Shown piece after piece: positions 9,805-38,775 of a stretch of 61,311 nt of DNA (its first letter is position 1; every line of letters starts with the position of its first letter). The notes beneath the pieces are model-generated. The model was not told the origin of the DNA and searched no databases. It was given only the letters and a program-made list of their open reading frames with translations. The stretch comes from an uncultured Candidatus Saccharibacteria bacterium (GTDB taxonomy: Bacteria; Patescibacteriota; Saccharimonadia; CAILAD01; BJGX01). The stretch spans positions 1 through 61,311 of the forward strand of contig CAZWVB010000001.1 in the NCBI GenBank assembly GCA_964637185.1. The letters run 5' to 3'. A program made the translations under genes and the position numbers.

Positions 9805-11615
9805 CATTGATTTATATCTGAAAAAACGCTACAATGTAGCAATTCTGATGAGGGGCTATAGCTCAGTTGGCTAGAGCGCTTGCATGGCATGCAAGAGGTC
9901 GGGAGTTCGAGTCTCCCTAGCTCCACCAGATCGTTCTCTTTCAAACCGTGGGCCACGGAAACGGGCCCACGGTTGTTTGTTTCCCGCGTCCGTCGGCCCT
10001 GGCGGCGTCCTGGGACGCCCAGGCGGGCCGGCAGGGCCGGATCGAGCAACTTCTCGAAGAGGGGTTGCAGTTCGGCCTTGGCGACCTCGGGCGTTCGCGT
10101 GTCGGGATCGGCGTGGATCAGGATGCGCGTGAAGAAGGCCTGGTTCAGCAGCCGCCGTCGGGCGGGCTTGGCCTGCTGGTAGGTCTCGGCGCAGTCAGCG
10201 GCGAGTTCGTAGGCGGCAGCGAGGTTGTCCTCGATGGTGGCCCACTTGATGTTGGCCAGCTCCGATCGCTTCTTGGCATCGACCAGTTCGGCTTCGATGC
10301 GGTCTTGCCGGTCCTTGAGTTGTTCCTTGGTGAGTGACCCGAATTCGTAGCCGTCGAGCAGCTTCTGCTGGCGGTTCTTGAGGCTCTGGATCCGCTTGGT
10401 CTGTTCGCGGGCTTCTCGCTCCGCCGCCTCGTTGGCGCCCTTGAGCGCCTCGGCCAGCTTGTCGCGCAGCGTGTTGGCGAGATCCGTCGGCAGGTTGACG
10501 TGGTCGCGGTAGTACGCCTCGACGAGGTTCTCGACTTGCTCGGCGGGGACATACGGCATGGTGCAGGTCGTGCGTTTCTGGTGTCGTCCGAGGCAGAAGA
10601 AGTAGTCGTAGCTGCCGCCGTTGCCGACGGCCCGGGTGAAGGCGATCCGTGATCCGCAGGTGGCGCAGTAGAGCGTGGAGCGCAGGTAGTGCGGGTGCGC
10701 TCGTTGCTTCTCGCCGGTGCAGCGTGAGTTGAGCAGGGCCTGCACCCGGGCGAAGGTCTCGAAGTCGACGAGCGGTTCGTGCTCGCCGGGATAATTGGCG
10801 CCCTTGTAGCGGATGATGCCGACGTAGTACGGGTTGGTCAGCATCTTGTGGACGTGCGCCTTGTAGAGCGGCCGTGACTCGCAGCGGGCGGTCTCGATGG
10901 TCTTCAGACCTCGGGCGGCGAGGGCGTCGGTCAGGCGGTTGAGGCTGTAGTCGCCGGAGGCGTAGGCCTCGAACGCCCAGCGGACATGCTCGGCTCGTTC
11001 GGGGTCGGGTTCGGCCCAGCGCACGTCGCGCTTGCCGGAGATCTCGCGCTTGTTGACGTAGCCGATCGGCGCTCGGCCAAGGGTGCCGCCGGCTTGGGCC
11101 TTGGCGGCGAGGCCTTTGCGGATCTCGCCAGCCAGGTTGTTGGAGTAGAACTCCGCGATCGTGGCCATGATGCCGTGCACCAGCAACCCTGACGGGGTGT
11201 CGTCGATGTTCTCGGACACCGACACCAGCTGTGCACCAGCTTGCTTGAGCCGGAAGTGGATCATGGCTTCTTCGTGGCGGTTGCGTGCCCAGCGGTCGAC
11301 CTTGTGCACGATGACGTAGTCGATGTCCTGCATGGTCTCGAGCCGCTCGAGCAGTCGCTGTAGTTCCGGTCGGTCGTCGGTGCGAGCGGACTCGGCCCGT
11401 TCGACGTACTCGCTGACCACGACCGCGCCGAGTTCTTCGGCCTTGGCCTGGCAGGCTTGGGTCTGGGCTGGGATCGAGTACCCGTCGTCACCGCGCCGGT
11501 TCCGGTTGACCTGCTGCTCGGAGCTGACCCGCACGTAGATCGCCGCTCGTTTGAAGCCAGCCATAACGTCTGTGCTGGCTTCTGTCTTGACCTCTTGTGT
11601 TGCTACTCCCTTCAT
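9801..11615 (-). CDS. Large serine recombinase (integrase); 3' end reads through attL and antisense across the tRNA
   Basis: AAIYVRVSS catalytic Ser, DRWARN, recombinase domain, zinc ribbon CATCG...YFFC; AAAGGA SD before ATG 11615. Confidence 0.95.
   Translation of the reverse strand: MKGVATQEVKTEASTDVMAGFKRAAIYVRVSSEQQVNRNRRGDDGYSIPAQTQACQAKAEELGAVVVSEYVERAESARTDDRPELQRLLERLETMQDIDYVIVHKVDRWARNRHEEAMIHFRLKQAGAQLVSVSENIDDTPSGLLVHGIMATIAEFYSNNLAGEIRKGLAAKAQAGGTLGRAPIGYVNKREISGKRDVRWAEPDPERAEHVRWAFEAYASGDYSLNRLTDALAARGLKTIETARCESRPLYKAHVHKMLTNPYYVGIIRYKGANYPGEHEPLVDFETFARVQALLNSRCTGEKQRAHPHYLRSTLYCATCGSRIAFTRAVGNGGSYDYFFCLGRHQKRTTCTMPYVPAEQVENLVEAYYRDHVNLPTDLANTLRDKLAEALKGANEAAEREAREQTKRIQSLKNRQQKLLDGYEFGSLTKEQLKDRQDRIEAELVDAKKRSELANIKWATIEDNLAAAYELAADCAETYQQAKPARRRLLNQAFFTRILIHADPDTRTPEVAKAELQPLFEKLLDPALPARLGVPGRRQGRRTRETNNRGPVSVAHGLKENDLVELGRLELPTSCMPCKRSSQLSYSPSSELLHCSVFSDINQC
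9852..9928 (+). tRNA. tRNA-Ala (GGC)
   Basis: GGGGCTA acceptor with G3:U70, anticodon arm CTTGC-AT GGC AT-GCAAG, T-loop GTTCGAG, encoded CCA; promoter TTGATT-N17-TACAAT at 9807-9835. Confidence 0.97.
9919..9929 (+). repeat. attL core AGCTCCACCAG
   Basis: Identical to 38765-38775; overlaps the tRNA 3' end. Confidence 0.9.
9946..9982 (+). terminator. Element-supplied terminator downstream of the tRNA
   Basis: CCGTGGGCC / GGCCCACGG stem followed by TTGTTTGTTT. Confidence 0.6.
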
Positions 11616-11700
11616 GTAGGTTCCTTTCTCTGAAACTATTGTCGCGCTATCCATTTGAAATGAAAAGCGCGACAGGCGATCGGTATTTGTTTGTGTATTG

Positions 11701-12360
11701 CTACGAACTGGCGAGCAACTGGCTCTCTATGTCGGCATCAGCGACCGGCACGAAGATCGGCACGGCTGCCGCGCGGAAGTACTGGGCAGCCCGTGGCTTG
11801 CCGTGACGGTGGCTGCATCGTGGGACGGGTTGTTGCAGGCCGGTCTGGTGCAGACGAGTCTGCATGGCGGCTTGGGACACGTCGAAGCGGTAGGCCAGGC
11901 TGGACAGGCGTTGGCTGCCGGTGGTCCAGGCTCGCTTCAACCACGGTCGAGGGATGAGTAGGCAGCCAGCGAAGTAGTCGCAGACCAGCTCGATCCAGTC
12001 CTCACGCTCCTGGGGATCGACCGCGCCGTAGAGCTGGGTGACGAAGGGGTGGTCGATGATGTGCTTGAGTTCGTGGGCCAGGCTGAAACGTTGCCGCAAG
12101 CGGGAGTCGTTGCTGTTGAGCACGACCTTCCAGCGGCCGTGTTCCCAGGCGCTCATGCCGGAGTGCAGCATGGCCTTGGAGCGGGTGACCTGCACTCTTC
12201 GCAGTTCCGTGACGATGCGCTCGGGCACTGGCGGGGCGCTGATACCACTCAGCTCCAGCAGTTTCATGGCCTGGCGTTCGGCGATAGACAAGGCCTCGAT
12301 CCGTGTCAGCGGGCGGAACGGCACGACGTCGCGTAGCTGGGCGATGACGCCGGGCCTCAC
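11701..12360 (-). CDS. ImmA/IrrE-family metallopeptidase
   Basis: RQRFSLAHELKHII (HExxH), ELVCDYFAGCLLIP. Confidence 0.9.
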   Translation of the reverse strand: MRPGVIAQLRDVVPFRPLTRIEALSIAERQAMKLLELSGISAPPVPERIVTELRRVQVTRSKAMLHSGMSAWEHGRWKVVLNSNDSRLRQRFSLAHELKHIIDHPFVTQLYGAVDPQEREDWIELVCDYFAGCLLIPRPWLKRAWTTGSQRLSSLAYRFDVSQAAMQTRLHQTGLQQPVPRCSHRHGKPRAAQYFRAAAVPIFVPVADADIESQLLASS

Positions 12361-12671
12361 AACGTGTTCCTCCAGGGATGGCTGTCACCGTTGATGCCGG
12401 TCGCTCGCAGCTTGGCGGGCTTGGCCTTGGGCTGATCGCCGGTGGTGCGCTCGTCTTTGCTGTCGTGGCGTGCCCTGTCCTCCTGCTCGGGGAAGACCGG
12501 TTCGCCGTCGGGGATGCCGTAATAGGGCCGCAGGACCTCGGCGTAGGCCTCCAGGTCGGCGCGGTCACGGGCGCTGAGCCGGTCCGACCGGCGGAAGTAG
12601 ATAGCTGGCAGCGTGCTGAGTGCAGCCAGATGTTCGTCTACATAGATGCTTTGTTGTTTTCCTTTCGCCAT
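12357..12671 (-). CDS. Hypothetical protein in the position of an ImmR-type repressor; no clear HTH
   Basis: Coupled (GTGA overlap) to the ImmA gene; purine-rich SD. Confidence 0.5.
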   Translation of the reverse strand: MAKGKQQSIYVDEHLAALSTLPAIYFRRSDRLSARDRADLEAYAEVLRPYYGIPDGEPVFPEQEDRARHDSKDERTTGDQPKAKPAKLRATGINGDSHPWRNTL

Positions 12672-12855
12672 TGGAAGTGTTCTTCCTTTCCTTCCATTCC
12701 ATTTTCGCATTGTGTTCGTATCCCGTCAAACATGAGCGGATTGAACAGGTTGCGATCGGAACGGCTATTGACTCTTAAATGTTGATGAAATGTGCGGTAT
12801 AATGAGTGTGTAATCGTGAGTGGTTGATGTGTGCAGCAACCACTTGTGAGGGTGT

Positions 12856-38324: not shown

Positions 38325-38367
38325 ACATCGCGATGCTTAGGAATGCCCCATACCAGTTGTCGTCGCG

Positions 38368-38661
38368 TCACAGCTCGTCGCGGTACGCGGTCACGCTCCC
38401 AACGGCGCCATCGAGTGAGCTGGCCGCCATGCGCAGGGACTCAGCGGCAGCCGTCAGTTGGGCGACCAACCTGATGTCAAGACCGTTGGACGCGCCTCCA
38501 AGGAGACAGTCGATGGCATCGGCAAGCGCTACTGCCTCGCTCTCCATCTGAGTGGCTTGCGACTGGATGCGTTCAGCCCGGCCAGCAACATCAGTGAGCT
38601 GCCTTCGCAGTCGATTGATGGCGGCTCGCGGGTCGCCAGTGCCGCCGGTGACGTCGACCAT
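38368..38661 (-). CDS. WXG100-like helical hairpin protein (orphan)
   Basis: LLGGASNGLDIRLVAQL aligns with AIGGSAQNVDKEIIATL of 25522-25782. Confidence 0.55.
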   Translation of the reverse strand: MVDVTGGTGDPRAAINRLRRQLTDVAGRAERIQSQATQMESEAVALADAIDCLLGGASNGLDIRLVAQLTAAAESLRMAASSLDGAVGSVTAYRDEL

Positions 38662-38764
38662 CGGCCGAAGCTACTACGCCCCGACAATGAGATGACTTCA
38701 CACGACAGGTTCGGAACCGGGTCGTCAAACGGGCAGGTCGGAGCGGTTTGAAAGAAGTCCGATC

Positions 38765-38775
38765 AGCTCCACCAG
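38765..38775 (+). repeat. attR core AGCTCCACCAG
   Basis: Identical to 9919-9929; GC drops immediately after. Confidence 0.9.

Follow-up and report, generated by a model that had tools for sequence, protein, structure and literature searches.

A probable integrative mobilizable element of actinobacterial type at a tRNA-Ala gene of an uncultured Saccharibacteria bacterium

Contig CAZWVB010000001.1 of an uncultured Candidatus Saccharibacteria bacterium (assembly GCA_964637185.1), a stretch of 61,311 nt that we call the window and to which all coordinates refer, carries a GC-rich island of 28.8 kb beside a tRNA-Ala gene, and this raises the question of what the island is, where it came from and whether it still moves. 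The jump in GC content exactly between two 11-bp repeats, which an initial annotation had reported, was borne out, with 50.5% in 1–9851, 64.6% in the island (9930–38775) and 48.2% in 38776–58880, and GC3 is about 0.8 in the island versus 0.5 in the host genes. By its gene content we class the island as an integrative mobilizable element (IME) of actinobacterial type, and we consider it likely, as an explanation of the whole, that such an element was integrated at the tRNA-Ala gene by its own large serine recombinase (LSR) and carries predicted functions for regulation and transfer together with cargo. Bacteria belonging to the candidate phyla radiation (CPR, or Patescibacteria) make up a large share of bacterial diversity and are almost intractable genetically, and gene exchange with their hosts has so far been inferred mostly from single-gene phylogenies.

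The target tRNA gene is intact, as the initial annotation had stated (Table 1), and it is identical at 77 of 77 positions to that of a second host, represented by contig L009; L-numbers denote contigs from public assemblies and sequencing runs (Logan, ENA, NCBI) that were compared with the window. One promoter-like site was found upstream of the gene, with 0.1 expected from shuffled sequences, and the host-type terminator that had been placed 11 nt past attR is present there, with a stem of seven pairs, six of them G-C. Removal of the insert on paper thus restores a compact promoter-tRNA-terminator unit, and other hosts have a hairpin and T-run of their own where the window has its terminator. 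Just within both element ends lies a perfect 12-bp inverted repeat (TCTTTCAAACCG / CGGTTTGAAAGA), with a second inverted pair, CGATC/GATCG, nested within it; by our own arithmetic, a perfect inverted repeat of this length lying no more than about 30 bp from either end has a chance expectation of about 1e-4 or less. When the ends are joined they form a dyad of about 50 bp centred on the CC of the core, and the rebuilt attP reads CGGTTTGAAAGA-AGTC-CGATC-AGCT-CC-ACCA-GATCG-TTC-TCTTTCAAACCG; it includes …GTCCGATCAGCTCCACCAGATCGTTCTC…, and the rebuilt attB includes …CCCTAGCTCCACCAGTTATCATATTCC…. Comparison of an occupied actinobacterial attL (L016) with an empty attB (L018) confines the crossover to CTCCAC in the acceptor stem, and the dyad centre falls where this comparison places it. 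An attP of about 50 bp, an imperfect dyad and a short crossover core fit the att anatomy of LSRs.

The element encodes such a recombinase, its gene abutting attL, with resolvase, recombinase and zinc-ribbon domains at residues 37–190, 218–310 and 324–383 of 617 and the motif YVRVSSEQQ; its sequence matches in the PDB are the integrases of TP901-1 and A118. The open reading frame (ORF) crosses attL into the antisense strand of the tRNA, with a likely start at 11615 (604 aa, the full ORF having 617 aa), so that attP overlaps the 3' end of the LSR gene and integration swaps the last residues of the protein. The lengths are 604/617 aa in the window, 597 aa in L009, 583 aa in L016 and 591 aa as computed for the excised circle, and the C-terminal tail thus differs from host to host and in the excised form (583–617 aa versus 591 aa). 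This change recalls the integration-dependent control of some mycobacteriophages. A search of genome contigs with the LSR gave three loci, the window's own genome not among them, and the IMG/VR scan gave nothing.

Both junctions are real, and the initial reading of a site-specific integration, as opposed to an assembly chimera, holds. The Logan contigs L006–L008, from three separate sequencing runs, match the window at 100% over 2–5 kb to each side of attR, running from 36792, 37014 or 37866 through the junction into host genes, and the right flank has a 99.7% match in an ENA contig. L009, from another run, crosses attL with element DNA that is 95% identical and keeps the order Obg-MTS-tRNA, in a host whose flank has 42% GC and whose MTS and Obg proteins share 69% and 51% identity with those of the window; the attL junction is also present in L038, L041, L042 and L044. 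It is hardly credible, given these contigs, that an actinobacterial contig was misjoined to a Saccharimonadia contig at a tRNA-like 11-mer during assembly or binning. The repeat is admittedly short, at 11 bp, and all Logan left-flank contigs of the window end within the tRNA, but these stops are explained by the identity of the tRNA sequence between hosts, while the ends form a dyad of LSR type, the insert splits the promoter-tRNA-terminator unit exactly, and occupied and empty sites in an actinobacterial species differ precisely at the core. That mis-binning happens is evident from an LSR fragment placed in a 'Chloroflexota bacterium' metagenome-assembled genome (MAG). This fragment (L013, JAKOVD010000157.1) spans 1.5 kb, carries the M78 protease gene and a partial LSR gene at 88.6% DNA identity, and its placement is probably a binning error for a piece of a mobile element.

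The flanks, with housekeeping genes including ftsA, ruvX, yceG, obg, leuS, nusB, rnc and smc among others, proved to be of CPR type, as had been supposed. The named relatives of the leucyl-tRNA synthetase (LeuRS) are Candidatus Saccharimonadia or Saccharimonadales at 54–64% identity, apart from one Parcubacteria sequence (57%) and one unclassified bacterium, and by this marker we assign the host to the Saccharimonadia.

The classification as an IME follows from several properties. The ends are defined, with att repeats at a specific target, and the same ends were found in at least six other contexts; the element carries its own site-specific recombinase beside one end; and a relaxase and a coupling protein are recognised by homology, which is the basis of all protein functions given here. 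The family of the relaxase, PF13814, corresponds to MobC in table 1 of PMC5357655, and the relaxase has no match in PLSDB. NCBIfam matches of the coupling protein to TraD and CD1115 lie below cut-off, and its best plasmid matches, at about 40%, are to Embleya and Streptomyces. This protein and an EccC-like protein are the only P-loop ATPases of the element. A self-transmissible integrative and conjugative element (ICE) employing a type IV secretion system (T4SS) was rejected, as profile searches of the predicted proteins found no VirB4-family ATPase or mating-pair-formation gene set, and it is on this account that we favour an IME. An actinomycete ICE (AICE) was rejected as well, given the serine recombinase, the failure to find a Rep protein and an FtsK-domain protein that is closest to EccC/YukB. 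No element protein matched the phage families of PHROGs, and the element is therefore not regarded as a prophage.

Among the remaining backbone genes, that of the M78 metalloprotease lies directly upstream of the LSR gene. The small protein encoded before it, in the position of ImmR, has homologues in L016 (71%) and L010 (55%), and the ribbon-helix-helix (RHH) protein is conserved in L010, L014, L015 and L016. For the DNA methyltransferase no partner nuclease was found in the element. In L043 (SRR21707647) an otherwise identical copy of the element contains an IS30-like transposase gene (HTH_38 and rve domains, 584–1549 of that contig) at the location of the RHH gene and the small regulatory gene.

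Near-identical copies occur in other genomes. Exact-protein look-ups placed the 97-aa end protein in 32 collection blocks and the M78 protease in 36. The right end of the element (its last 3.6–4.1 kb, up to 4,055 bp) is 99.97–100% identical beside at least five other low-GC flanks (L025/26, L027, L029, L030 and L033), of which the comparable flanking genes are only 66–67% identical to those of the window and the others are unrelated, and each readable flank, that is, all but the 18-nt stub of L033, has a distinct hairpin and T-run after the tRNA end. L035 matches the left 12.4 kb at 100%, and element sequence at 99.9–100% identity adjoins tRNA-Ala 3' ends of at least three kinds. Three low-GC genomes are syntenic with the window flanks, namely L009 (Obg-MTS-tRNA), L029 (tRNA followed by VanY) and L025/26 (cation ATPase and Mur ligase). 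Identical mobile DNA in genomes as diverged as these implies spread on a very short evolutionary timescale. The element ORFs are all intact, and protein identity, taken from the LSR, is higher than DNA identity, at 97.6% versus 95.2% in L009 and 93% versus 88% in L016. Contigs L036 and L043 end at window position 9921, exactly at the core boundary …CTGGTGGAG, and L035 and L037 end at 9945, 24 bases before it; a stop at the core boundary would be expected if, within one sample, copies of the element adjoin tRNAs with unlike bases at the next position (AGCTCC-type versus CCTCC-type).

It is highly improbable that the element is a long-resident, vertically inherited component of Patescibacteria that is merely rich in GC. 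Such residence would agree with the finding that several low-GC genomes have it at one and the same tRNA-Ala locus and that the local gene order of the window is preserved in three of them. The element DNA, however, is 95–100% identical where neighbouring genes are about 66–67% identical in DNA and 51–69% in protein, the GC3 values of element and host genes are far apart, the named relatives are all Actinomycetota, and both an occupied and an empty site exist within one actinobacterial species.

The occupied site, in L016, carries a variant of the element, with 88% DNA identity, at the 3' end of a tRNA-Ala(CGC) gene in a genome of 68–70% GC, whose YchF protein shares 99% identity with its counterpart in 'Actinobacteria bacterium ATB1' and 80% with that of an Acidimicrobiia. 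Seven contigs of the same species, including an NCBI MAG (L018–L024), are 99.6–99.75% identical to the L016 flank from the exact crossover onward and carry MFS-tRNA-Ala(CGC)-YknX without the element, that is, an empty site. The element thus occurs in two phyla, and the identical copies in Saccharimonadia-like genomes, together with the 88% actinobacterial relative, support the view that it is crossing phylum boundaries now. In L032, 1,062 bp of the element end, 100% identical, lies beside a flank of 70.7% GC with a PNPOx-family gene whose best match is to a Tsukamurella gene, at 46%, and this flank is probably an actinobacterial chromosome.

More distant relatives point the same way. The named relatives of the LSR, at 44–49%, are all actinobacterial (Acidimicrobiales, Acidimicrobiia, Pseudonocardiaceae, Actinomycetota), and the gene order coupling protein-relaxase-methylase-RHH-LSR recurs beside tRNA genes in Pseudonocardia and Microlunatus MAGs. 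The nesting of element proteins within CPR clades, which had been named as an outcome that would tell against a foreign origin, is not what these relatives and their backbone synteny suggest. In Pseudonocardia sp. SAW28 (L014) and Microlunatus sp. 8M008 (L015) the order shared with the element is T4CP-Replic_Relax-(methylase)-RHH-LSR, T4CP being the coupling protein, and protein identities are 36–51%; the genes targeted there are instead those of tRNA-Leu(TAG) and tRNA-Ser(GGA), the 10 kb retrieved contain no Hsp70/EccC cargo, and neither M78 nor ArdA is matched. A further relative, L011, whose LSR is 61% identical and whose genes are in the same order, lies at the tRNA-Ala-like 3' end of a tmRNA gene (1924–2268 of that contig, Rfam 109.7 bits) in a genome of about 50–55% GC; a match to a type III hammerhead ribozyme (3652–3706, 50.8 bits) is found 1.4 kb farther on. 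To the right of the core no motif is common to the hosts, so that recognition may lean on the conserved acceptor and T-arm side of tRNA-Ala, and recognition of this kind suggests an explanation for a broad host range.

From the composition of the element and the distribution of its distant relatives, as distinct from phylogeny, transfer probably proceeded from Actinomycetota to Saccharimonadia. The initial annotation had proposed movement from a high-GC host or neighbour into its epibiont: the actinobacterial origin is supported by composition, distribution and the 88% copy in the ATB1 species, and the donor may have been a host or neighbour of the epibiont. The opposite course, in which the element is native to Saccharimonadia and spills occasionally into Actinomycetota, would accord with the greater number of distinct low-GC than high-GC contexts seen for the lineage of 100% identity; we consider it quite improbable, given that the composition matches Actinomycetota and not Saccharimonadia, that the distant relatives of the backbone (LSR 42–49%) and of the cargo are all actinobacterial, and that modules of MOB_C relaxase and coupling protein are rare in Patescibacteria.

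The following course of events would account for these properties. The LSR would recombine its attP, a dyad of about 50 bp, with tRNA-Ala-like genes at their 3' end, crossing over within CTCCAC, such that the tRNA stays intact and its terminator is shifted to the far side of the insert. The operon of small ORF, M78 protease and recombinase would control excision by de-repression, a prediction drawn from its gene order, which is that of immR-immA-int in ICEBs1. After excision, the MOB_C relaxase would nick the circle and the coupling protein of the element would hand the DNA to a mating pore supplied in trans, either by a co-resident conjugative element in an actinobacterium or by the chromosomal conjugation-like T4SS of Patescibacteria. 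ArdA and the lone methylase may protect the incoming DNA from restriction, and the cargo (Hsp70, GrpE, three J-domain proteins, the EccC-like ATPase, WXG100-like hairpins and two toxin-like proteins) may export or control toxins. Most Patescibacteria have a T4SS of monoderm type, while relaxases are rare among them, MOB_C being the commonest class, and relaxase genes often adjoin a coupling-protein gene (PMC12102498); the element fits this published description and gives an anatomy to it.

Several observations weigh against this explanation. The host is identified from a single marker protein; the only securely actinobacterial copy, that in L016, is 88% identical and not about 100%; and the flank of L032 is identified by its composition and the Tsukamurella match only, and another island could explain it. 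The 104/117-aa protein in the ImmR position has no recognisable helix-turn-helix (HTH) motif or family match in Pfam, NCBIfam and other family searches. Profile searches of the predicted proteins (Pfam, NCBIfam and others) yielded no VirB4, VirB6, VirB8 or pore-associated hydrolase, which is negative evidence, and neither an oriT nor a recombination directionality factor was identified in the element. Neither the excised circle (attP, in IMG/VR) nor an empty Saccharimonadia attB (in a metagenome scan) was found, and activity in Saccharimonadia is therefore deduced only from the identical copies in different genomes.

Some of these observations would also be met if the integrations were real and nevertheless a dead end, with separate entries from actinobacterial donors, by mobilization or competence, and no excision or transfer out of Saccharimonadia. 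Saccharibacteria are naturally competent, which counts for this alternative, as do the lack of pore genes and the outcome of the attP and attB scans. Also in its favour, most Patescibacteria T4SS clusters are without relaxases and are thought to have been repurposed (PMC12102498). We nonetheless regard it as unlikely: at least five low-GC flanks carry base-identical copies versus one high-GC flank among the matches listed, the ORFs have stayed intact with protein identity exceeding DNA identity, and competence imports single-stranded fragments, a poor fit with the establishment of a 29-kb circle. Within the preferred explanation of a mobilizable element, a more far-reaching version is possible, if rather doubtful, namely that of a currently active broad-host-range IME shuttling between Actinomycetota and attached Saccharimonadia, which would dock its relaxase and coupling protein on the conjugation-derived T4SS that serves Patescibacteria in epibiotic growth and whose cargo would provide an undescribed kind of Hsp70-assisted, EccC/WXG100-like toxin export in the conflict between epibiont and host. 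If this were true, the T4SS would gain a role in DNA transfer and the CPR a ready-made recombinase/attP tool.

The cargo operon runs in the order Hsp70, J-TPR (the co-chaperone with J-domain and TPR), GrpE, FtsK-superfamily ATPase, small helical proteins, a toxin-like/immunity-like pair, J-TPR 2 and PQQ propeller (Table 1). The ATPase is closest to EccC/EssC (NCBIfam EccCa at 96 bits, below cut-off, with a single Walker A motif), and its best PDB matches are EccC and YukB rather than DNA translocases. The 90-aa protein is modelled as two helices (pLDDT 93), with EsxB and CFP10-ESAT6 at a TM score of about 0.7 but E >0.3; these statistics are weak, as they commonly are for folds this simple. 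For toxin-like protein 1 the single-sequence model gives helices H3–43 and H50–87 at pLDDT 72–79 and is poor beyond this hairpin (pLDDT 55). A direct repeat of 334 nt (24942–25275 and 34443–34776, 89% identical) encodes the N-terminal hairpin common to both toxin-like proteins, and it is a point at which Logan contigs covering the element are broken off. At 24000–24900, within an element of 65% GC, the GC content falls to about 52% in a patch that takes in the C-terminal part of toxin-like protein 2 together with the 131-aa immunity candidate, and a shared N-terminus, differing C-termini and such a patch are the pattern expected for swapped toxin/immunity modules. The ORF at 25804–26712 (+) and a 508-aa ORF at 24494–26020 (−) were dropped in favour of four minus-strand genes because of codon-position GC, the Rhodococcus synteny described next and the internal repeat.

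A plasmid of Rhodococcus pseudokoreensis (NZ_CP070617.1, 69.5–78.5 kb) carries seven homologous genes in the same order, at 30–54% identity: Hsp70 (54%), J-TPR, GrpE and the FtsK-like ATPase, followed by the toxin-like, immunity-like and 255-aa genes. Genes sized like the pair for 86 and 229 aa also follow the ATPase gene there. This plasmid cassette too sits among mobile-element genes (Tn7-like genes and a recombinase), and its proteins are annotated only as hypothetical or domain-containing; it has one J-TPR gene versus two in the element, and no match to the PQQ propeller or the Gln-deamidase protein. A canonical type VII secretion system (ESX/Ess) was rejected, as the ATPase has one FtsK domain, versus three in EccC/EssC, and one Walker A motif, and scores far below the EccC cut-off; no Pfam or NCBIfam match to EccB/D/E with MycP, or to EssA/B, was found in the element. 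PADLOC matched only a generic FtsK domain, and the cargo is thus not a catalogued defence system. The GAP1-N2 GTPase-centric conflict systems (Kaur et al. 2020, PMC7159879), which with HSP70/GrpE have one or more GTPase components with zinc ribbons, GAP1 and an FNIII-repeat protein, share only the Hsp70/GrpE/DnaJ-TPR theme with the cargo and were rejected, the element having no further P-loop protein and no GTPase or FNIII match. CoCoNuT systems were rejected also, their themes overlapping with the cargo and their defining parts not. The EccC-like protein gave nothing in the metagenome scan, nor did the Hsp70 in the IMG/VR scan. Tentatively, we suggest that the cassette may be a system for chaperone-assisted export, or for control, of toxins.

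Table 1. Features of the element and of its target site in the window
Feature	Position	Strand	Basis
Promoter-like site of target tRNA gene (host)	9807–9835	+	TTGATT-17-TACAAT, 9/12 matches
Large serine recombinase (LSR)	9801–11654	-	Pfam Resolvase 1.9e-31, Recombinase 7.4e-15, Zn_ribbon_recom 6.9e-11
Intact tRNA-Ala(GGC), integration target, attB left arm	9852–9928	+	ARAGORN; Rfam RF00005 67.1 bits
attL core AGCTCCACCAG, 11 bp	9919–9929		last tRNA bases form the 11-mer
Right arm of attP dyad TCTTTCAAACCG	9937–9948		perfect reverse complement of 38744–38755; present in L009 and L016
ImmA/IrrE-type M78 metalloprotease	11701–12360	-	Pfam Peptidase_M78 2.7e-18
Small protein in ImmR position, first gene of orf-M78-LSR operon	12357–12710	-	gene order, overlapping stop/start codons
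RHH DNA-binding protein, putative regulator or relaxosome accessory factor	12910–13200	-	weak matches to PSK_trans_fac, HicB, RelB
ArdA anti-restriction protein	13320–14132	-	Pfam ArdA 2.3e-34
N6/N4 DNA methyltransferase	14129–15187	-	Pfam N6_N4_Mtase 1.6e-37
MOB_C-type relaxase (Replic_Relax)	15184–16332	-	Pfam PF13814 5.8e-36
Type IV coupling protein (VirD4/TraD-like)	16124–18400	-	Pfam T4SS-DNA_transf, TrwB_AAD_bind, TraG-D_C
Small hypothetical proteins, two with transmembrane (TM) segments	18397–19687	-	codon-position GC; hydropathy
344-aa hypothetical protein	19840–20874	+	codon-position GC typical of a real gene; no family match
Membrane-anchored PQQ-type beta-propeller, last gene of chaperone operon	20894–22834	-	Pfam PQQ_2 2.1e-10; TM segment at residues 71–89
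J-domain + TPR co-chaperone, two C-terminal TM helices (paralogue 1)	22845–24041	-	Pfam DnaJ, TPR; hydropathy
Candidate immunity protein, 131 aa	24094–24489	-	downstream of toxin-like gene; 30% to Rhodococcus plasmid equivalent
Toxin-like protein 2	24494–25213	-	N-terminus common to Gln-deamidase protein; C-terminus differs, 34% to Rhodococcus plasmid gene
WXG100-like helical hairpin protein, 90 aa	25222–25494	-	Pfam WXG100 17.9 bits, cut-off 27.3
86-aa coiled-coil protein (25522–25782) and 229-aa protein (25810–26499)	25522–26499	-	codon-position GC
FtsK/SpoIIIE-superfamily ATPase, one P-loop domain	26496–29723	-	Pfam FtsK_SpoIIIE 4.8e-24
GrpE nucleotide-exchange factor	29416–29961	-	Pfam GrpE 1.6e-16
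J-domain + TPR co-chaperone, two TM helices (paralogue 2)	29958–31175	-	family match, hydropathy; 33% to Rhodococcus plasmid gene
Hsp70 paralogue, 513 aa, short C-terminus	31178–32719	-	Pfam HSP70 1.3e-126; below NCBIfam DnaK cut-offs
255-aa hypothetical protein conserved with cassette	32911–33678	-	36% to gene flanking Rhodococcus cassette
Toxin-like protein 1: N-terminal helical hairpin + papain-fold glutamine deamidase	33959–34714	-	Pfam Gln_amidase 1.3e-10
403-aa hypothetical coiled-coil protein	35061–36272	+	codon-position GC; no family match
Third J-domain protein	36347–37645	+	Pfam DnaJ 5.6e-06
97-aa helical protein beside attR	38368–38661	-	exact protein in 32 collection blocks, at least 6 different flanks
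Left arm of attP dyad CGGTTTGAAAGA	38744–38755		identical in 10/10 attR contigs
attR core AGCTCCACCAG, 11-bp direct repeat of attL core	38765–38775		100% identical across junction in L006–L008
Intrinsic terminator of tRNA gene (host), displaced 28.8 kb by insertion	38786–38803	+	hairpin CCAGCCGCttgcGGCTGG then TTTTTG

The element resembles several known mobile elements in part. ICEBs1 of Bacillus subtilis, which integrates at a tRNA 3' end, combines an immR-immA-int module having an HTH repressor with a tyrosine integrase and a complete T4SS. The element shares with it the M78/ImmA-type gene directly upstream of the integrase gene, the small gene before that and the tRNA 3' end as target, but it has an LSR in place of a tyrosine integrase, encodes no T4SS, and its small protein is without a detectable HTH. 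With AICEs such as pSAM2 and SLP1 (PMC3218068) it has in common actinobacterial hosts, integration at tRNA 3' ends and an FtsK-superfamily protein; AICEs, however, employ a tyrosine integrase, Rep and the dsDNA translocase TraB, whereas the element encodes a serine recombinase together with a relaxase and coupling protein, and its FtsK-like ATPase resembles EccC and lies within a chaperone operon. Firmicutes IMEs with a MOB_C relaxase and a serine recombinase (Coluzzi et al. 2017, PMC5357655; Guedon et al. 2017, PMC5704250) share the recombinase of their own, the relaxase with or without a coupling protein, the lack of a mating pore and the short repeats. The element differs from them in its hosts (Actinomycetota and Patescibacteria), in its target (tRNA-Ala-like 3' ends), in an attP inside the recombinase gene and in a large chaperone/EccC-like cargo.

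Gene transfer into Saccharibacteria is generally accepted (PMC7427843), and as a phenomenon transfer between Actinomycetota and Saccharimonadia is not new. The accessible part of a preprint (bioRxiv 10.64898/2026.09.16.751625, September 2026) already describes a five-gene region shared at >99% by Ca. Phosphoribacter and Ca. Lutisaccharimonas, in one MAG pair, and many further pairs of Patescibacteria and non-Patescibacteria genera with transfer. As described there, that region is similar to the present case in its transfer from Actinomycetota to Saccharimonadia, its recombinases beside host-matching tRNAs and its transcriptional regulator, and it is smaller, with five genes versus a complete IME of 28.8 kb; no att sites, element type or mobilization genes are described there. 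What is new here is the complete IME with exact ends; a tDNA-targeting serine recombinase with attP inside its own gene; base identity over stretches of up to 12.4 kb among several diverged low-GC genomes, of which at least three show synteny with the window Saccharimonadia; an occupied/empty site pair in an actinobacterium; and an uncharacterised cargo system. An element with exact ends, a defined attP and a natural attB makes the movement of DNA between epibiont and host directly testable in real time, and likewise whether the T4SS of Patescibacteria can carry DNA and whether the serine recombinase can serve as a tool for site-specific integration in Saccharimonadia. The element also brings the uncharacterised chaperone/EccC-like/toxin cassette into bacteria that parasitise other bacteria.

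Two features of the host flanks may be added. In the leucyl-tRNA synthetase (48683–51769) a NUDIX domain is inserted after the editing domain (residues 441–569), and this is common to most of the Saccharimonadia-like homologues. Furthermore, a second high-GC islet at about 58,890–61,190 (63.6% GC versus 48% around it) holds purH (58829–60400, GC3 0.80), whose best relative of solved structure is PurH of M. tuberculosis (3zzm), and two small ORFs. The islet is also present in an independent ENA contig, L012 (99.7%), no integrase or repeats were noticed in it, and it appears to have been acquired separately, from a donor of high GC content; complete nucleotide biosynthesis has been noted in some Saccharimonadia (2026 preprint).

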